64,000 nucleotides of DNA from the NCBI RefSeq assembly GCF_024700885.2, contig NZ_CP117016.1; one strand, 5' to 3'. Below the pieces are notes generated by a model that worked only from the letters and a program-made list of their open reading frames with translations, ran no database searches and was not told the origin of the DNA. Positions 5,844 to 17,888 of this stretch are shown here, in pieces. The stretch is from Escherichia coli (lineage in GTDB: Bacteria > Pseudomonadota > Gammaproteobacteria > Enterobacterales > Enterobacteriaceae). A program made the translations under genes and the position numbers. The stretch's first letter is position 1, and the number at the start of each line of letters is the position of its first letter.

Positions 5844-7115
5844 ATGGAAGACGACTGCGACATTATTATTATCGGTGCCGGCATTGCGGGCACCGCTTGT
5901 GCGTTACGCTGCGCGCGGGCAGGTTTATCCGTTCTGTTACTGGAACGTGCTGAAACCCCTGGCAGCAAAAATCTTTCTGGCGGGCGTTTATACACCCATG
6001 CGCTCGCGGAACTCCTCCCGCAATTTCATCTGACCGCGCCTCTTGAACGACGCATCACTCACGAAAGCCTTTCCCTGTTAACGCCGGATGGCGCAACGAC
6101 GTTTTCCAGCTTACAGCCCGGCGGAGAATCCTGGAGCGTATTACGTGCACGGTTCGATCCGTGGCTGGTTGCCGAAGCCGAAAAAGAAGGTGTCGAATGC
6201 ATCCCTGGTGCGACGGTGGATGCGCTGTATGAAGAAAACGGCAGGGTGTGTGGTGTCATTTGTGGTGACGATATTCTCCGCGCCCGTTATGTGGTGCTGG
6301 CAGAAGGTGCCAACAGCGTCCTGGCTGAGCGTCACGGGTTAGTGACTCGTCCTGCTGGCGAAGCGATGGCGTTGGGGATCAAAGAAGTGCTGGCGCTGGA
6401 AACATCCGCTATTGAAGAACGTTTTCATCTGGAGAATAACGAAGGCGCAGCGTTGCTGTTCAGCGGCGGAATCTGTGATGACTTACCCGGCGGCGCATTT
6501 CTTTATACTAATCAACAAACGCTCTCGTTAGGGATTGTTTGCCCGCTCTCTTCACTTACGCAAAGTCGTGTTCCAGCAAGCGAGCTGCTGGCTCGCTTTA
6601 AAACGCATCCGGCAGTGCACCCGCTTATCAAAAACACGGAATCACTGGAGTATGGTGCGCATCTGGTGCCAGAAGGTGGCTTGCACAGTATGCCAGTGCA
6701 ATACGCCGGTAACGGCTGGCTGCTGGTGGGCGATGCGTTGCGCAGTTGCGTCAATACCGGAATTTCCGTGCGCGGTATGGATATGGCGCTGGCTGGCGCA
6801 CAGGCGGCGGCACAAACGCTGATAAGCGCCTGCCTGCACCGCGAGCCGCAAAATCTGTTTCCGCTTTATCATCACAACGTCGAGCGCAGCCTGCTATGGG
6901 ATGTTCTACAACGTTATCAGCATGTTCCGGCGCTTTTGCAACGACCTGGCTGGTATCGGGCGTGGCCTGCGTTAATGCAGGATATTTCCCGTGATTTATG
7001 GGATCAGGGTGATAAACCTGTTCCGCCGCTGCGCCAGTTATTCTGGCGTCATTTACGTCGTCACGGCCTGTGGCATCTGGCGGGCGATGTTATCAGGAGT
7101 CTGCGATGTCTGTAG
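5844..7115 (+). CDS. ygcN: FAD-dependent oxidoreductase, FixC/ETF-QO-like
   Basis: ORF trimmed to ATG at 5844 (423 aa); N-terminal dinucleotide-binding motif DIIIIGAGIAG. Confidence 0.85.
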   Translation: MEDDCDIIIIGAGIAGTACALRCARAGLSVLLLERAETPGSKNLSGGRLYTHALAELLPQFHLTAPLERRITHESLSLLTPDGATTFSSLQPGGESWSVLRARFDPWLVAEAEKEGVECIPGATVDALYEENGRVCGVICGDDILRARYVVLAEGANSVLAERHGLVTRPAGEAMALGIKEVLALETSAIEERFHLENNEGAALLFSGGICDDLPGGAFLYTNQQTLSLGIVCPLSSLTQSRVPASELLARFKTHPAVHPLIKNTESLEYGAHLVPEGGLHSMPVQYAGNGWLLVGDALRSCVNTGISVRGMDMALAGAQAAAQTLISACLHREPQNLFPLYHHNVERSLLWDVLQRYQHVPALLQRPGWYRAWPALMQDISRDLWDQGDKPVPPLRQLFWRHLRRHGLWHLAGDVIRSLRCL

Positions 7116-7382: not shown

Positions 7383-7958
7383 ATGCCCCTCTTACACCTG
7401 CTCCGCCAGAATCCGGTGATTGCTGCCGTTAAAGATAATGCCAGCCTGCAACTGGCAATCGACTCTGAATGCCAGTTTATTTCCGTGTTGTACGGCAATA
7501 TCTGCACCATTAGTCAAATCGTTAAAAAGATTAAAAATGCCGGAAAATATGCTTTTATTCATGTTGATTTGCTGGAAGGCGCGTCAAATAAAGAAGTGGT
7601 GATTCAGTTTTTGAAACTGGTGACAGAGGCGGACGGAATTATCAGTACCAAAGCCTCAATGCTGAAAGCAGCAAGAGCGGAAGGTTTTTTCTGTATTCAT
7701 CGCCTGTTTATTGTTGATTCAATTTCGTTTCACAACATTGATAAGCAAGTTGCGCAATCGAATCCGGATTGTATTGAGATCCTGCCAGGCTGTATGCCCA
7801 AAGTGCTGGGCTGGGTGACGGAGAAAATCCGCCAACCGCTGATTGCTGGCGGGCTGGTGTGCGATGAAGAAGATGCGCGTAATGCGATTAACGCAGGTGT
7901 CGTGGCGCTTTCCACCACGAATACCGGGGTCTGGACGCTAGCGAAAAAATTGCTTTGA
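7383..7958 (+). CDS. ygcP: GlpP-family (glycerol-3-phosphate-responsive type) transcription antiterminator-like protein
   Basis: 191-aa ORF, MPLLHLLRQNPVIAAVKDNASLQLAIDSECQFISVLYG...; AAGGA SD upstream; family assignment by recall. Confidence 0.8.
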   Translation: MPLLHLLRQNPVIAAVKDNASLQLAIDSECQFISVLYGNICTISQIVKKIKNAGKYAFIHVDLLEGASNKEVVIQFLKLVTEADGIISTKASMLKAARAEGFFCIHRLFIVDSISFHNIDKQVAQSNPDCIEILPGCMPKVLGWVTEKIRQPLIAGGLVCDEEDARNAINAGVVALSTTNTGVWTLAKKLL

Positions 7959-7993
7959 CGGGATAATCGTAACGAATTGAATTTGTGTGATTT

Positions 7994-8100
7994 GTAGGCT
8001 GCACGCCACATCCGACATTCAGCGCCTGATGCGACGCTTGACGCGTCTTATCAGGCCTACAAGTCCCCAGCCCAGAACCGTAGGCAGGATCATCCGGCAA
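7994..8100. repeat. REP/BIME cluster between convergent ygcP and ygcQ
   Basis: Contains GCCTGATGCGACGCTTGACGCGTCTTATCAGGCCTAC (8024-8059) plus flanking REP-like GTAGGC palindromes. Confidence 0.7.
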
Positions 8101-12672: not shown

Positions 12673-13458
12673 TTAGCGCACTAAATAACCGCCATCGACC
12701 ACTAATAAATGCCCGTTAACATAATTTGAAGCCGGACTTGCGAGGAATACGGCTGCGCCCATTAAATCCTGAGTATCGCCCCAACGGTTTGCCGGAATAT
12801 GATCAAGAACGCGCTGGTTAGTTTCTGGATTACTACGGGTCGCCAGAGTGATATCGGTAGCGTAATATCCCGGGGCAATACCATTCACCTGAATATTATA
12901 TTGACCTAATTCATCGCAATAGGCTTTGGTGAATCCGGCAAGAGCATGTTTAGTGGCAGAATAAGCAGGTGACCATTGTCCACCTAAGTAAGAGAACAAT
13001 GAACAGATATTAATGATTTTACCGCTTTTCTGCGGGATCATAATTTTTGCAGCTTCATAGCTTAACTCGAATGCGGCGGTCAGGTTCACATCAATCATTG
13101 GATCCCAGTCGGCACGACCGAAGTCCAGCACCTTATTCAGCTTACAAATACCGGCATTGTTAACCAGAATATCGACGGTACCGAAACGTTCGCAACAGGC
13201 GGCGATTATCTTCTGCGGCGCGCCTTTTGCGGTGATATCCACCTGCATGAAGTCTACTTCAACACCCTGTTTTTCAATCATTTCCTTTGTTTCGCCGTTA
13301 TCTTTGACGAAGCTTGGAATAAAGATATTTGCGCCTGCTTTGGCCAGCGCCATGGCAAATGCCTGGCCTAAACCGCTATTCCCGCCGGTAACAATTGCGG
13401 TTTTACCTTTCAGGGAGAAAAAATCCATTGAGAACGCATTGAGAGATTCGATTGACAT
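12673..13458 (-). CDS. ygcW: short-chain dehydrogenase/reductase (KduD-like)
   Basis: ORF 12673..13533 trimmed to ATG at 13458 (261 aa, MSIESLNAFSMDFFSLKGKTAIVTGGNSGLG...); Rossmann TGGNSGLG motif; GGAG SD 8 nt upstream. The longer ORF-track N-terminus is encoded by the leader terminator (poly-Phe from the T-run). Confidence 0.85.
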   Translation of the reverse strand: MSIESLNAFSMDFFSLKGKTAIVTGGNSGLGQAFAMALAKAGANIFIPSFVKDNGETKEMIEKQGVEVDFMQVDITAKGAPQKIIAACCERFGTVDILVNNAGICKLNKVLDFGRADWDPMIDVNLTAAFELSYEAAKIMIPQKSGKIINICSLFSYLGGQWSPAYSATKHALAGFTKAYCDELGQYNIQVNGIAPGYYATDITLATRSNPETNQRVLDHIPANRWGDTQDLMGAAVFLASPASNYVNGHLLVVDGGYLVR

Positions 13459-13482
13459 AGTTAGCTCCAATTTCCGTAAGGC

Positions 13483-13530
13483 AAAAAAAAAGAAAGGTAA
13501 CTTCCCCCGCGAGAGGGAAGTTACCTTTCT
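13483..13530 (-). terminator. intrinsic terminator in the 5' leader of ygcW (candidate attenuator)
   Basis: Perfect 16-17 bp stem (13491-13507 / 13514-13530, loop CGCGAG) followed on the minus strand by a run of 8-9 U, ending 24 nt upstream of the ygcW ATG. Confidence 0.6.
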
Positions 13531-13582
13531 CATTATCTCTGGTAACTGGAGATAATTTTTATCATAAGGGCATAATCGCTAA

Positions 13583-13598
13583 TGTGATCGTAATCACA
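13583..13598. promoter_or_regulatory. consensus CRP-binding site TGTGA-N6-TCACA in the ygcW/yqcE divergent region
   Basis: aaTGTGAtcgtaaTCACAgt read directly; both half-sites match consensus perfectly. Confidence 0.55.
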
Positions 13599-13704
13599 GT
13601 GTGATATTCGAATTGTCAAATAATTTTAAAAAGCAGAAGCGTGATTACTCTCACACAACACCACTGCTTTCCATGTTATTTCTTATTGCAATTACTAGAG
13701 ACCT

Positions 13705-13752
13705 GAGAAAAGTAATCCACCTGAAAGGGCGGCTTACTTTTCTCTTTTTTTT
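13705..13752 (+). terminator. intrinsic terminator in the 5' leader of yqcE (candidate attenuator)
   Basis: Perfect 11-bp stem GAGAAAAGTAA / TTACTTTTCTC (18-nt loop) followed by T8 (13745-13752), ending 24 nt upstream of the yqcE ATG. Confidence 0.55.
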
Positions 13753-13776
13753 GTCTATTACAAATGGGAATACGAT

Positions 13777-15054
13777 ATGCAACACAACTCATGTCGCCGT
13801 TGGATAACCCTCGCGATAATTAGTTTTAGCGGCGGCGTTAGTTTCGACCTGGCTTATTTACGTTATATTTATCAAATTCCCATGGCGAAATTTATGGGAT
13901 TCAGCAATACCGAGATAGGTTTAATAATGAGTACCTTTGGTATTGCGGCTATTATTCTTTATGCCCCCAGCGGCGTTATTGCCGATAAATTTTCACACCG
14001 CAAAATGATTACTTCCGCGATGATCATTACCGGATTACTGGGTCTGTTAATGGCAACATATCCACCGCTGTGGGTAATGCTCTGTATTCAGGTCGCCTTT
14101 GCGATAACGACGATTTTAATGCTGTGGTCGGTGTCGATTAAAGCCGCCTCGTTGCTGGGCGATCATAGCGAGCAAGGGAAAATTATGGGCTGGATGGAAG
14201 GGCTGCGCGGCGTCGGTGTAATGTCGCTGGCGGTGTTTACCATGTGGGTCTTTTCTCGCTTTGCACCGGATGACAGCGCCAGCCTGAAAACGGTCATTAT
14301 TATCTATAGTGTGGTTTACATTCTGCTGGGCATTTTGTGTTGGTTTTTTGTTAGCGATAACAACAACCTGCGCAATACCAATAACGAAGAAAAACATTCA
14401 TTCCAGCTTAGCGACATCCTGGCCGTTTTGCGCATCAGAACCACCTGGTATTGCAGCATGGTGATTTTTGGTGTCTTCACCATCTACGCCATTCTGAGTT
14501 ACTCCACCAACTATCTGACCGAAATGTACGGCATGTCGCTGGTGGCGGCGAGCTACATGGGGATTGTGATCAACAAAATCTTCCGCGCGCTGTGCGGCCC
14601 ACTTGGTGGCATTATCACCACCTACAGCAAAGTGAAATCCCCTACCCGCGTGATCCAAATCCTTTCCGTACTCGGCTTGCTGGCGTTAACTGCCCTGCTC
14701 GTCACGAACTCTAACCCGCAATCGGTCGCGATGGGGATTGGCCTGATTTTACTGCTGGGATTCACCTGTTACGCCTCACGCGGGCTGTACTGGGCCTGCC
14801 CTGGCGAAGCGAGAACACCGTCTTACATTATGGGCACCACGGTAGGTATTTGTTCGGTGATTGGATTCCTGCCGGATGTCTTCGTTTACCCGATTATCGG
14901 CTACTGGCAAGACACCCTGCCCGCTGCAGAAGCCTACCGCAATATGTGGCTGATGGGCATGGCGGCGCTTGCCATGGTGATCGTCTTTACCTTTTTGCTG
15001 TTCCAAAAAATTCGTACTGCTGATAGCGCCCCTGCTATGGCTAGCAGCAAGTAA
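13777..15054 (+). CDS. yqcE: MFS transporter
   Basis: 425-aa ORF, MQHNSCRRWITLAIISFSGG...; many hydrophobic spans. Confidence 0.85.
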   Translation: MQHNSCRRWITLAIISFSGGVSFDLAYLRYIYQIPMAKFMGFSNTEIGLIMSTFGIAAIILYAPSGVIADKFSHRKMITSAMIITGLLGLLMATYPPLWVMLCIQVAFAITTILMLWSVSIKAASLLGDHSEQGKIMGWMEGLRGVGVMSLAVFTMWVFSRFAPDDSASLKTVIIIYSVVYILLGILCWFFVSDNNNLRNTNNEEKHSFQLSDILAVLRIRTTWYCSMVIFGVFTIYAILSYSTNYLTEMYGMSLVAASYMGIVINKIFRALCGPLGGIITTYSKVKSPTRVIQILSVLGLLALTALLVTNSNPQSVAMGIGLILLLGFTCYASRGLYWACPGEARTPSYIMGTTVGICSVIGFLPDVFVYPIIGYWQDTLPAAEAYRNMWLMGMAALAMVIVFTFLLFQKIRTADSAPAMASSK

Positions 15055-15080: not shown

Positions 15081-16559
15081 ATGTCGAAAAAATACATCAT
15101 AGGGATTGATGGCGGAAGTCAGAGCACAAAAGTGGTGATGTACGATCTGGAAGGTAACGTGGTTTGCGAAGGCAAAGGCTTATTACAGCCGATGCACACG
15201 CCAGATGCCGATACTGCAGAACATCCTGACGACGATTTATGGGCATCATTATGTTTTGCCGGTCACGATTTGATGAGTCAGTTTGCCGGAAATAAAGAAG
15301 ATATTGTCGGTATTGGTCTGGGATCCATCCGTTGCTGCCGTGCGTTATTGAAAGCCGATGGCACGCCAGCTGCGCCGTTGATTAGCTGGCAGGATGCTCG
15401 CGTTACACGCCCTTACGAACATACGAATCCTGACGTGGCATATGTCACCTCTTTTTCGGGTTATCTGACGCATCGCTTAACCGGCGAGTTTAAAGATAAT
15501 ATCGCCAACTATTTTGGTCAGTGGCCGGTGGATTATAAGAGCTGGGCATGGAGCGAAGAGGCTGCGGTAATGGATAAGTTTAATATCCCCCGTCATATGC
15601 TGTTTGATGTGCAAATGCCTGGCACCGTCCTCGGACATATCACACCACAAGCCGCGCTGGCGACACATTTCCCGGCTGGGCTGCCGGTTGTTTGTACCAC
15701 CAGTGATAAACCGGTAGAAGCACTGGGAGCCGGGTTACTGGATGATGAAACTACGGTAATTTCTCTTGGCACTTACATCGCGTTGATGATGAACGGCAAA
15801 GCACTGCCGAAAGATCCGGTAGCGTACTGGCCGATTATGTCTTCTATTCCGCAAACATTGCTGTATGAAGGTTACGGTATCCGCAAAGGCATGTGGACAG
15901 TGAGCTGGCTGCGCGACATGTTAGGCGAGTCGTTAATTCAGGATGCCAAAGCACAGGATCTTTCACCGGAAGATTTGCTCAACAAAAAAGCGTCTTGTGT
16001 GCCGCCTGGCTGTAATGGTCTGATGACGGTGCTGGACTGGCTGACCAATCCGTGGGAACCGTACAAACGCGGGATTATGATCGGCTTTGATTCCAGCATG
16101 GATTACGCATGGATATATCGTTCGATACTGGAAAGCGTGGCGCTGACGCTGAAGAACAATTACGACAATATGTGTAATGAAATGAATCACTTTGCAAAGC
16201 ATGTGATCATTACTGGCGGCGGTTCGAACAGCGATCTGTTTATGCAGATTTTTGCCGACGTGTTCAACCTTCCGGCACGCCGTAACGCCATTAATGGTTG
16301 TGCAAGTCTGGGGGCAGCGATTAATACGGCGGTAGGTCTGGGGCTATACCCGGATTACGCAACGGCTGTCGACAAAATGGTTCGCGTGAAAGATATCTTT
16401 ATGCCTGTTGAGAGCAACGCCAAACGCTACGACGCGATGAATAAAGGCATTTTCAAAGACCTAACCAAGCACACTGATGTGATCCTGAAAAAATCGTATG
16501 AAGTGATGCATGGTGAGCTGGGGAATGAAGATTCGATCCAGAGCTGGTCGAATGCGTAA
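15081..16559 (+). CDS. ygcE: FGGY-family carbohydrate kinase
   Basis: 492-aa ORF, MSKKYIIGIDGGSQSTKVVMYDLEGN...; N-terminal GIDGG sugar-kinase motif. Confidence 0.85.
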   Translation: MSKKYIIGIDGGSQSTKVVMYDLEGNVVCEGKGLLQPMHTPDADTAEHPDDDLWASLCFAGHDLMSQFAGNKEDIVGIGLGSIRCCRALLKADGTPAAPLISWQDARVTRPYEHTNPDVAYVTSFSGYLTHRLTGEFKDNIANYFGQWPVDYKSWAWSEEAAVMDKFNIPRHMLFDVQMPGTVLGHITPQAALATHFPAGLPVVCTTSDKPVEALGAGLLDDETTVISLGTYIALMMNGKALPKDPVAYWPIMSSIPQTLLYEGYGIRKGMWTVSWLRDMLGESLIQDAKAQDLSPEDLLNKKASCVPPGCNGLMTVLDWLTNPWEPYKRGIMIGFDSSMDYAWIYRSILESVALTLKNNYDNMCNEMNHFAKHVIITGGGSNSDLFMQIFADVFNLPARRNAINGCASLGAAINTAVGLGLYPDYATAVDKMVRVKDIFMPVESNAKRYDAMNKGIFKDLTKHTDVILKKSYEVMHGELGNEDSIQSWSNA

Positions 16560-16568
16560 GTGAGGAAG

Positions 16569-16591
16569 GCCGGGCGGGAAACTGCCCGGCC
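16569..16591 (+). terminator. GC-rich stem-loop just downstream of ygcE stop (possible terminator, no U-run)
   Basis: GGCCGGGC-GGGAAACT-GCCCGGCC, 8-bp stem. Confidence 0.4.
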
Positions 16592-16605
16592 TGAACATAC
16601 CTGAA

Positions 16606-16877
16606 TGGTTATCCCCGCTGACGCGGGGAACTCGCCAGTGCCTGGTCATATGTGTAACACCTATCCGGTTTATCCCCGCTCGCGCGGGGAACTCTTGCTG
16701 TATAGAGATTATCGGCGTGGGATTGTCGGTTTATCCCCGCTCGCGCGGGGAACTCGTTTGCGGCTTGCAAACATTTTAATGCGTATTCGGTTTATCCCCG
16801 CTCGCGCGGGGAACTCCCAGCCCGACACAAATAATGCAGCATTGCGCGCGGTTTATCCCCGCTCGCGCGGGGAACTC
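16606..16877 (-). CRISPR. orphan type I-E-like CRISPR array: 5 repeats (29 bp; leader-distal one degenerate, 28 bp) and 4 spacers of 32 bp
   Basis: Repeats at 16606-16633 (degenerate TGGTTATCCCCGCTGACGCGGGGAACTC), 16666-16694, 16727-16755, 16788-16816, 16849-16877, consensus CGGTTTATCCCCGCTCGCGCGGGGAACTC. Spacers: GCCAGTGCCTGGTCATATGTGTAACACCTATC; TTGCTGTATAGAGATTATCGGCGTGGGATTGT; GTTTGCGGCTTGCAAACATTTTAATGCGTATT; CCAGCCCGACACAAATAATGCAGCATTGCGCG. No cas genes in the window. Confidence 0.9.
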
Positions 16878-17040
16878 TCTAAACATAACCTATTATTAAT
16901 TAATGATTTTTTAAGCCAGTCACAATCTACCAACTTTACAGTATCACACAAACAACACATCTATTATGTTAAAGAGCACTTAATCCATTGATTGAAAAGG
17001 TAAATATTTAAAATAACTCTATACAAACTAAAATCTACCA
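16878..17040 (-). other. AT-rich CRISPR leader adjacent to the intact terminal repeat
   Basis: AT-rich sequence abutting the non-degenerate end of the array; extent approximate. Confidence 0.5.
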
Positions 17041-17216
17041 AACTCCGACGTAATAATTTTCACCTCAGAGAAAAATTAACGCCACAGAATTTGTAGAGAA
17101 TGACAATGATTAGTCCGGAATGGGCAAAATGGATGAGTTTTCAGAGGCGACAAAAAATATAAATGAGTGGAAGTCTTTACAGGTTCCACCCATTTATAAC
17201 GCATATAAATGTGTAA

Positions 17217-17888
17217 TCAGGCAATATTTAAATATTTATGTGTTTGCATCGACAAACGCCAGTTACGCGCAATGCAAGTTTCAATGCACAAACGTGTGGC
17301 ATCATCCTTTTGGCTAATCGGCTGCAGTGCAATGACTCGCGGTTTATCATCGGTCAGCGTCGCAAGCAATTCATCCAGTGCTTCGATATCACGTACGCGT
17401 CCAACTGGGTGTTTGATTTCGTTAGCTCGCTCCAGGGCTTGCGACAATACTTCATAACCACCACGCATATTTAGCTTTGGCGACACGGTGACCCAGGTAT
17501 TCGACGTACAACGCACTTCATGAGTACCGCTGGTTTCTATCTGGCAACTGAAACCGTTCTTTTCGAGCAGATCAGTTAGTGGCATCAAGTCATGAATACA
17601 AGGTTCACCACCCGTAATCACCACGTGACGCGCGGTGTATCCCTGACGACCGATGACTGCGAGTAAGTCTTCACTGCTTGCTGCTCCCCACTTATCACTC
17701 TCTTTCGTTTTACCCAGAATGCTGAAAAGGGAAACTTCCCGATCCTCAAGCTTTTCCCATGTGTGTTTGGTGTCGCACCAGGCACAGCCGACCGGGCATC
17801 CCTGTAAACGAATAAAAATGGCGGGAACGCCGGTAAAGTAACCCTCACCTTGCAGGGTCTGGAACATCTCGTTAATCGGGTACTGCAT
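17217..17888 (-). CDS. queE: 7-carboxy-7-deazaguanine synthase (radical SAM, queuosine pathway)
   Basis: 223-aa ORF, MQYPINEMFQTLQGEGYFTGVPAIFIRLQGCPVGCAWCDTK...; radical-SAM Cys motif. Confidence 0.9.
   Translation of the reverse strand: MQYPINEMFQTLQGEGYFTGVPAIFIRLQGCPVGCAWCDTKHTWEKLEDREVSLFSILGKTKESDKWGAASSEDLLAVIGRQGYTARHVVITGGEPCIHDLMPLTDLLEKNGFSCQIETSGTHEVRCTSNTWVTVSPKLNMRGGYEVLSQALERANEIKHPVGRVRDIEALDELLATLTDDKPRVIALQPISQKDDATRLCIETCIARNWRLSMQTHKYLNIA

Follow-up and report, generated by a model that had tools for sequence, protein, structure and literature searches.

The ygcN to ygcE genes make up one of the larger catabolic islands of unknown function in Escherichia coli K-12, with no known regulator or inducer. 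Here we describe the spacer between two divergent genes of this cluster, ygcW and yqcE, in a 64,000-nucleotide stretch of E. coli DNA (contig NZ_CP117016.1, assembly GCF_024700885.2; hereafter the window, whose numbering is used unless stated otherwise), in which each gene is preceded by a leader terminator that overlaps a conserved alternative hairpin, and we consider whether both leaders are controlled by antitermination through YgcP, a GlpP-family protein encoded in the same cluster. The window comes from an E. coli chromosome other than that of K-12. The stretch queried against MG1655 is 97.8% identical to it; the 318-bp ygcW-yqcE spacer (13459-13776) contains no insertions or deletions relative to K-12, and is present in 5067 of 5426 complete E. 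coli genomes.

The genes lie in the order cysJ, queD, ygcN, ygcO and ygcP, then the leftward-reading ygcQ, ygcR, ygcS, ygcU and ygcW, then the rightward-reading yqcE and ygcE, and finally queE. The product of ygcW (12673..13458, minus strand), the first gene of the leftward ygcW-ygcU-ygcS-ygcR-ygcQ string, is annotated as a short-chain dehydrogenase/reductase (SDR); that of yqcE (13777-15054, plus strand) as a major facilitator superfamily (MFS) transporter; and that of ygcE (15081-16559, plus strand), the second gene of the yqcE operon, as an FGGY kinase. The ygcW start codon corresponds to CAT at 13456-13458, so that the first intergenic base is 13459. A mechanical list of open reading frames gives ygcW 286 codons (12673-13533, minus strand) by extending it in frame upstream through the leader hairpin described below; it is the 261-residue form, starting at 13458, that is kept in all orthologues. 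Within the queD-queE cluster as annotated there is no gene for a DNA-binding regulator, and ygcP (7383..7958, plus strand), which RefSeq names and a Pfam match identify as a putative RNA-binding antiterminator of the GlpP family (PF04309), is the sole regulator-like gene, located 5.5 kb from both leaders.

Leader terminators

Sequence inspection, folding and comparison with shuffled sequences all bear out the initial proposal that a hairpin with a U-run stands before each of the two start codons. The ygcW leader hairpin on the minus strand (stem 13531..13490, U9 at 13491..13483, overall span 13483..13531), which was also found by terminator scanning, has the form GAGAAAGGUAACUUCCCUC-UCGC-GGGGGAAGUUACCUUUCUU, with 19 pairs including G-U pairs, and its folding energy of -31 kcal/mol lies well outside the range for shuffled sequences (z = -6.8). 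The yqcE leader hairpin on the plus strand (stem 13705-13744, U8 at 13745-13752) comprises 11 perfect basal pairs and an upper stem, with an energy of -20.5 kcal/mol (z = -5.1). On both sides 24 nt separate the end of the U-run from the start codon (13482..13459 and 13753-13776), the ygcW spacer (13459..13482, minus strand) carrying a Shine-Dalgarno sequence, GGAG. Overall, nine terminator-like sites were found in the interval 13000-14200, compared with 1.2 +/- 1.1 in shuffled sequences.

For comparative analysis we sampled 65 loci fetched by similarity to YgcP and three more obtained via exact protein look-ups. Hairpins are present in the leaders of all 51 full-length enterobacterial ygcW-yqcE spacers, and covary: among 91 distinct elements (alignment A3, made with MAFFT) pairing in the terminator helix amounts to 91.4%, and seven of its pairs show double changes. 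The element does not form a repeat family, since a sensitive BLAST search with the 68-nt element placed it at a median of two positions per genome across 5063 E. coli genomes, both within the ygcW-yqcE spacer and none on plasmids; this copy number rules out a dispersed palindromic repeat of the REP or ERIC type. A covariance model likewise matched only the two leader elements in the 64-kb window (E about 1e-14), and pattern searches, the covariance model over the window and BLAST against E. coli genomes revealed no third copy upstream of ygcN or elsewhere. Rfam 15 returned no family match within 13459-13776 in a 15-kb scan at E <= 1, and the best matches in a 361-nt scan at E <= 10 reached 26 and 22.8 bits where the gathering scores are 90 and 100, respectively, i.e. 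no curated family.

A conserved alternative hairpin

The minus- and plus-strand halves of the spacer can be aligned with one another from a CRP-like site to the ATG, and on this alignment the two sides are inverted paralogous modules. Each module contains, in order, a site for the cAMP receptor protein (CRP), an extended -10 element, the transcription start, a hairpin (P1) closing a GAGA-N3-4-GAGAAA loop, the terminator, 24 nt, and the ATG. A motif shared by both leaders upstream of the terminators, as the original prediction had envisaged, is CA(G/A)UUAC(C/U)-AGAGA-N3/4-UGAGAAA(G/A)GUAA(C/U), whose final segment doubles as the base of the terminator 5' arm. In P1, UUACY pairs with RGUAA to form a 6-7-bp helix around a 14-15-nt loop that holds two GAGA boxes. 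Alignment, covariation and folding place the ygcW P1 hairpin at 13519..13547 on the minus strand, with AGUUACC (13547..13541) pairing with GGUAACU (13525..13519) across the loop AGAGAUAAUGAGAAA (13540..13526), in which the GAGA box occupies 13539..13536 and the GAGAAA box 13531..13526. The same evidence places the yqcE P1 hairpin at 13691..13716 on the plus strand, with AUUACU (13691-13696) pairing with AGUAAU (13711-13716) across the loop AGAGACCUGAGAAA (13697-13710) and the two boxes at 13698-13701 and 13705-13710. P1 and the terminator 5' arm have 6-7 nt in common; because the 3' strand of P1 is itself the base of that arm, the two structures are mutually exclusive and P1 has the position of an antiterminator.

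Several observations indicate that P1 is maintained. Across the 91 distinct sequences 91.1% of cells are paired in P1, compared with 15-54% when the partner columns are slid, and this is a lowered figure, as five rows with a 3-4-nt insert in which MAFFT misplaced the 5' strand of P1 (L046m, L048m, L049m, L052m and L054p) were kept in. Three pairs show double changes (G-C/A-U 59/27, U-A/C-G 60/22, and one change of A-U to G-C), and pairing is retained despite sequence change across lineages (AGUUGCU/AGCGACU, GAAAUUACU/AGUAAUUUC, GUUUGUUUC/GAAACGGAC). Exchanging strands between P1 types reduced the mean number of contiguous pairs from 6.55 in the native combinations to 2.37. When the nascent leader was folded as it would be before synthesis of the terminator 3' arm, P1 was the minimum-energy structure in 17 of 20 diverse representatives. 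Finally, column 38 of the alignment is, in enterobacterial yqcE leaders, a U that is paired in P1 and stands opposite C in the terminator; since this position pairs in the one structure yet is mismatched in the other, the alignment suggests that selection acts on P1 itself.

These data bear on a simpler explanation, according to which the hairpins are attenuators that are unregulated or regulated in some other way, or plain 5' structures that serve as insulators separating the divergent promoters or as stabilisers of the mRNA 5' end or are relics of a palindromic mobile element, specific control being exerted only by CRP and H-NS at the promoters. Romero et al. 2014 (PMC4681348) did place the RNAs from this spacer under 'simple stem-loop, perhaps REP-like', genomic SELEX (systematic evolution of ligands by exponential enrichment) flagged binding of both H-NS and RpoD in the spacer, and in Bacillus GlpP also acts by stabilising glpD mRNA. 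However, the only two places that the element occupies in an E. coli genome are those in this spacer, two operons would be permanently silenced if so strong a terminator stood directly before them and acted constitutively, and P1-specific covariation, including that at the position mismatched in the terminator, would be left unexplained. REP-like or constitutive structures are ruled out by copy number and P1 covariation, and the explanation as a whole appears to us improbable.

Mapped transcript ends

Published transcriptome data place transcript starts and ends in both leaders. The class I transcription start sites of Romero et al. 2014 (PMC4681348) include two in the spacer: RVS_(I)-2898388 (U00096.2 2898384-88), which corresponds to a ygcW start cluster at 13547..13551 on the minus strand, and FWD_(I)-2898527, corresponding to a yqcE start at 13690..13691 on the plus strand. 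The latter is the first nucleotide of a conserved AAUUACU, with P1 pairing beginning 1 nt later at 13691. Both starts thus lie upstream of their hairpins, by 16-20 nt, and the hairpins are transcribed, as the proposal of leader terminators demands. The same authors describe a short RNA from either strand, ecr2774 of 73 nt from the minus strand and ecr2775 of 63 nt from the plus strand, the latter validated by northern blotting; they classed both as potential small RNAs (sRNAs). Each runs from the start site to the U-run, ecr2775 covering 13690-13753.

In addition, Term-seq data obtained in lysogeny broth (LB) at an optical density of 0.4 (Adams et al. 2021, PMC7815308) contain one 3' end in each leader, neither of which has an entry under known regulatory elements. 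Their coordinates were converted by means of the 61-nt sequence given for each end (from -50 to +10) and of its listed distance to the start codon (-38 and -36): 2900311(-) of U00096.3 falls at window position 13496, 38 nt short of the ygcW ATG, with a count of 40640, an intrinsic score of 15.8 and a Rho score of 0.50 ('No'), and 2900556(+) falls at 13741, 36 nt short of the yqcE ATG, with a count of 1557, an intrinsic score of 11.4 and a Rho score of 0.61 ('No'). With start sites upstream of the hairpins, and short RNAs and Rho-independent 3' ends mapped within both leaders, it follows that terminated leader RNAs exist, so that the premature termination originally postulated is seen in vivo; ecr2774, ecr2775 and the orphan ends 2900311(-) and 2900556(+) are the terminated ygcW and yqcE leader transcripts. 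The two published lists describe the same molecules and give them no function, no connection with YgcP or an antiterminator, and no mutual link, and we found no reinterpretation of ecr2774 and ecr2775 as attenuated leaders in the searchable literature.

Were ecr2774 and ecr2775 instead free-standing, trans-acting sRNAs with promoters and terminators of their own, the downstream genes being expressed from elsewhere or by leak-through, their abundance as discrete 63-73-nt RNAs with class I starts, the northern signal for one of them and the high Term-seq count for the ygcW leader in LB would all be accounted for, and a hairpin with a U-tail is the usual Hfq-binding module. Nevertheless, each RNA stops 24 nt before a start codon with no promoter between, a position that makes it a 5' leader; conservation falls on P1, the GAGA boxes and the terminator rather than on a single-stranded seed, a pattern that fits a cis-acting switch; and the same element precedes the same operons in Firmicutes, beside a PF04309 gene (see below). 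We consequently hold a purely trans-acting role to be unlikely, a second function of the leader RNAs as sRNAs being possible.

Promoters and CRP sites

The original prediction had envisaged that one CRP site, midway between the two hairpins, could serve both promoters. That site (TGTGATCGTAATCACA, 13583-13598, centre 13590.5; CRP site 1) is indeed a perfect consensus, and is already published: it was predicted in 2007, observed by chromatin immunoprecipitation sequencing in enterotoxigenic E. coli in 2015, and footprinted in vitro in 2026 with an estimated dissociation constant of 1.7 nM. Measured from the ygcW start cluster (13547-51), its centre is at -39.5 to -43.5. A second, putative site, identified from alignment of the two modules and from conservation (cGTGAttactcTCACA, also written CGTGATTACTCTCACA; 13640-13655, centre 13647.5), lies 57 bp from site 1 and, measured from the yqcE start (13690), at -42.5; the published CRP studies of site 1 do not list it. 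All 51 full-length spacers contain two CRP-like sites, each with at most two mismatches to TGTGA-N6-TCACA and each separated by a fixed 42.5-45.5 nt from the leader motif of its own module (for site 2, 42.5-44.5 nt as measured to the P1 reference point), and site 2 is a perfect consensus in many species, including members of Serratia, Pantoea and Erwinia. Each start therefore has its own CRP-like site some 42 nt upstream. Both promoters fit class II spacing, in which CRP is centred near -41.5, and would on this basis be CRP-activated from a class II position.

The -10 elements first suggested must likewise be replaced. For ygcW, the hexamer TATGAT (13561-13566, minus strand) had been proposed; the mapped start at 13547-13551 instead fits an extended element, TG-a-TAAAAA (TG-c-TAAAAA in K-12; 13556..13564, minus strand), and the orthologues keep a -10-like hexamer (TAAAAA, TAAATA, TACTTT or TAGCGT) 6-7 nt upstream of CAGTTAC. 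For yqcE, where TAATTT (13621-13626, plus strand) had been favoured, the start maps instead to 13690-13691, in keeping with an extended element TG-t-TATTTC (TATTTA in K-12; 13674..13682, plus strand), of which orthologues keep TGnTATTT 8-9 nt upstream of the P1 motif. Both extended -10 elements, which were assigned from their distance to the mapped starts, are probably correct. The arrangement of one CRP site with TATGAT and TAATTT is thus contradicted by the mapped starts and by the conserved second site.

Distribution of the element

Throughout the Enterobacterales sampled, both the cluster and the divergent ygcW/yqcE layout are conserved (Escherichia, Citrobacter, Klebsiella, Enterobacter, Yokenella, Mixta, Pluralibacter, Buttiauxella, Serratia, Rahnella, Ewingella, Pantoea, Erwinia, Izhakiella, Limnobaculum and Budvicia), and each of the 51 full-length spacers holds exactly two elements, one before each operon. 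Linkage of ygcP to the cluster is kept in about 60 genomes from four bacterial classes. Beyond the Enterobacterales, a covariance model designated R1 matches a divergent pair of elements in Vibrio hannami, before an SDR operon and before an FGGY-MFS-ygcP operon; elements before an SDR operon and before a gene for a BCCT transporter in Sporomusa; a divergent pair in Fodinisporobacter; and further elements in Thalassobacillus and in Bacillus sp. DNRA2 (two operons). In five Listeria species the element directly follows a TTGACT-17-TATATA promoter and precedes a ygcU-ygcP-yqcE-ygcW-ygcE operon. Across these genera the targets beside the ygcP homologue are operons for SDR proteins, flavin adenine dinucleotide (FAD)-dependent oxidases, FGGY kinases or transporters. 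Weaker R1 matches (22-28 bits) are found before genes resembling those for glycerol-3-phosphate dehydrogenase or oxidase (glpA/glpO-like), beside canonical glpP, in Lachnoclostridium and Faecalibacterium.

Between Listeria or Bacillus and E. coli the SDR homologues of YgcW are 70-78% identical and the YgcP homologues 55-59% (L056-L059 and L063 in Listeria; L060, L061 and L067-L069). This identity across phyla points to transfer of the whole cassette, which, to judge from these sequences, would have included the RNA switches.

Some individual loci depart from the common layout. Vibrio, Sporomusa and Fodinisporobacter have a transporter of the BCCT or OpuA type in place of the MFS protein, which may hint at the class of substrate. 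In the Anaerococcus glpK-glpO spacer (L066:12085-12170), a GA-rich run, AGAGAGAGACAGAGCC, stands ahead of a terminator-like hairpin, AGAGAGAGCC-UAGG-GGCUCUCUUUUCU, and may represent a divergent GlpP target of another layout. The spacer of Limnobaculum eriocheiris (L032:13856-13985) is just 130 bp long and has lost the two promoters along with the two P1 motifs, leaving one hairpin with an A-run on one side and a T-run on the other; in a sister species (L034) the two terminators are nearly identical, and the short spacer likely arose by recombination between the inverted copies or by assembly collapse. In Citrobacter youngae (L010:16320-16469) and Klebsiella spallanzanii (L012:12666-12815) the yqcE terminator and the start codon are set apart by some 128 bp of inserted DNA, which contains a long, imperfect palindrome and may be an ERIC/IRU element.

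YgcP and related systems

Residues 12-184 of YgcP match Pfam PF04309 (G3P_antiterm) over its full length with E = 1.6e-62, in support of its earlier assignment to the GlpP family; no other Pfam domain is significant, and CAT and PRD domains were not found. Related structures in the Protein Data Bank are 3KTS and 1VKF. Three B. subtilis promoters, those of glpD, glpFK and glpTQ, are each built from a core promoter, a GlpP site and, in the 5' untranslated region (UTR), an 'inherent terminator' that is disrupted by GlpP with glycerol-3-phosphate; deletion of glpP abolishes the activity of the glpD promoter (PMC9604022, PMC10573289). GlpP is described as binding the glpD antiterminator (GlpP antitermination: Holmberg & Rutberg 1991/92 and Glatz et al. 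1996/98, as cited in PMC9604022 and PMC10573289). The glpD 5' UTR reads ...ACGGUC-CUGAGAUGAGGAGA-GACCACAGC..., followed by the terminator, right after the promoter (PMC9604022).

The E. coli locus resembles this system in that a PF04309 protein is encoded together with its presumptive targets, that a terminator stands in the 5' UTR just downstream of the promoter, and that several operons with similar inverted repeats, including those for an FGGY kinase and a flavin dehydrogenase, belong to the set. By eye, the leaders also appear alike in that a short helix closes a loop with GAGA boxes and the 3' strand of this helix begins the terminator arm. In contrast to the GlpP regulon, the host is Gram-negative, the targets form a mirror-image divergent pair, P1 is longer (6-7 bp, AGUUACY/RGUAACU), and catabolite control would be exerted by two predicted class II CRP sites, not by CcpA at cre. 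Furthermore, the targets encode an SDR, a GlcD-like FAD oxidase, electron-transfer flavoprotein subunits, MFS transporters and an FGGY kinase other than GlpK; since glpF, glpK, glpD, glpT and glpQ are not among them, the effector of YgcP is probably not glycerol-3-phosphate.

Other antiterminators offer partial parallels. With BglG, SacY and LicT acting on the ribonucleic antiterminator (RAT) sequence (E. coli bgl, B. subtilis sac and lic) the leaders share a weak 5' hairpin that overlaps the terminator 5' arm, which in those systems is stabilised by a sugar-responsive RNA-binding protein; however, YgcP has neither CAT nor PRD domains, two GAGA boxes in a large loop take the place of the RAT double-bulge stem, and the cluster has no phosphotransferase system gene. 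HutP and TRAP, which read NAG or GAG triplets, are comparable in that the candidate contact site is a pair of GAG(A) sequences 3-4 nt apart adjoining a terminator. TRAP reads about eleven repeats and promotes termination. The ygc leaders differ from the HutP and TRAP targets in having two boxes inside a hairpin loop, and YgcP in having a fold of the 3KTS/1VKF type.

As an alternative to a protein partner, P1 with its purine-rich loop could be a riboswitch that binds a metabolite directly and thereby blocks the terminator. Riboswitches that act on transcription typically have such an architecture, in which an alternative hairpin overlaps the terminator of a short 5' UTR, and the loop sequence is strongly conserved. 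Yet the aptamer would be small, some 30 nt made up of a single 6-7-bp helix and a 14-15-nt loop without other conserved structure; Rfam gives no match even at E = 10; and strong model matches sit in leaders adjoining a PF04309 gene, although the loci were fetched through that gene. Moreover, the glpD leader, which by eye is similarly laid out, needs GlpP, there being no induction in the glpP deletion strain. We regard direct metabolite sensing as very unlikely and accordingly return to antitermination by YgcP.

A model for control of the ygc cluster

In the mechanism that we propose, CRP-cAMP would turn on both promoters, and transcription would start at the first nucleotides of the RNA switch. 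By default the leader would fold into the terminator, and polymerase would release an RNA of 60-75 nt, 24-40 nt before the start codon. In the presence of inducer, ligand-bound YgcP would bind the two GAGA boxes in the P1 loop and stabilise P1, the ligand being, by analogy with GlpK, glycerol-3-phosphate and GlpP, a phosphorylated product of the YgcE kinase. Because the P1 3' strand is the base of the terminator 5' arm, stabilised P1 would block formation of the terminator next to the U-tract, and read-through into ygcW and the genes that follow it, and into yqcE-ygcE, would result. That the leaders contain functional terminators with a conserved alternative hairpin is in our view almost certain, and YgcP-dependent antitermination at both of them is probable; binding of RNA by YgcP, the identity of its ligand, suppression of termination by P1 and the CRP dependence of both promoters are features that we infer. 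The logic first proposed for this locus, i.e. conditional terminators with CRP input and GlpP-like control, is accordingly supported by sequence, comparative and published transcriptome data, its promoter geometry being wrong.

A number of observations weigh against this interpretation, or at least against its simplest form. P1 alone has a folding energy of only -1.4 to -8.8 kcal/mol, no better than that of shuffled sequences, as compared with -16 to -40 for the terminators, so that antitermination needs strong stabilisation by protein. Independent compensatory events among the enterobacterial sequences are few (about three), and much of the pairing signal is inherited. RNA binding by PF04309 proteins has been shown only for B. 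subtilis GlpP, with no solved RNA complex, and the likeness of P1 to the glpD leader, in which a GGUC/GACC helix closes a GAGA-UGAG-GAGA loop (GGUC-CUGAGAUGAGGAGA-GACC), was judged by eye, model R1 scoring only 20-28 bits in Firmicutes. In Sporomusa the first GAGA box reads GUG; the Anaerococcus glpP locus has GA-rich leaders with no clear P1 element; and in Serratia microhaemolytica (L043) a YgcP homologue of 70% identity has neither ygc genes nor the element within the surrounding 18 kb. Lastly, the Term-seq ends lie at the foot of the G+C-rich upper stem and not at the end of the U-run. This offset is probably due to trimming. The position of the ends suggests that the effective terminator is GGUAACUUCCCUC/GGGGGAAGUUACC with the U-rich tract, from which P1 would take away exactly the lowest seven pairs.

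The kind of mechanism, GlpP antitermination, and CRP site 1 are already known. Searches of Rfam, RefSeq annotation and the searchable literature found no assignment of targets to E. coli YgcP, nor the paired-module architecture with two CRP sites or the cross-phylum RNA consensus. A broader proposal would combine three elements: that P1 with its GAGA boxes is a general RNA element of the PF04309 family in Bacillota and Proteobacteria, that the YgcP branch senses a phosphorylated product of YgcE other than one derived from glycerol, and that the system travels between phyla as a cassette with its RNA switches and catabolic genes; we consider the chances for and against this conjunction to be evenly balanced.

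If correct, this broader proposal would add a second, previously unrecognised class of protein-dependent transcription antitermination to E. coli K-12 and provide a handle on the substrate of a long-orphan gene cluster. The cluster gains a testable wiring diagram, with two predicted CRP-dependent promoters, two default-off RNA switches and a candidate sensor, and two published 'novel sRNAs' and two orphan Term-seq ends are reread as attenuated leaders. Fusions of the leaders to reporters could serve as a screen for the cluster's substrate, the sequence-structure consensus for GlpP-family targets should permit regulon prediction wherever PF04309 occurs, and portable antiterminator parts could be built, for which work with B. 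subtilis glpD already provides a precedent.

Other features of the locus

Between ygcP and ygcQ, at 7985-8057, there is a weak Rfam match to naRNA4 (29.4 bits against a gathering score of 59.5), which is probably a REP-type palindrome. K-12 has an annotated CRISPR (clustered regularly interspaced short palindromic repeats) array between ygcE and queE (L001:12900-13293); no tandem repeat was found at 16500-17300 of the window. A further Term-seq 3' end, at U00096.3 2892741 (+), lies about 80 nt into ygcN (Adams et al. 2021, PMC7815308). Assuming no insertions or deletions relative to K-12, it corresponds to approximately position 5926 of the window, inside the first gene of ygcNOP, which encodes the putative regulator.

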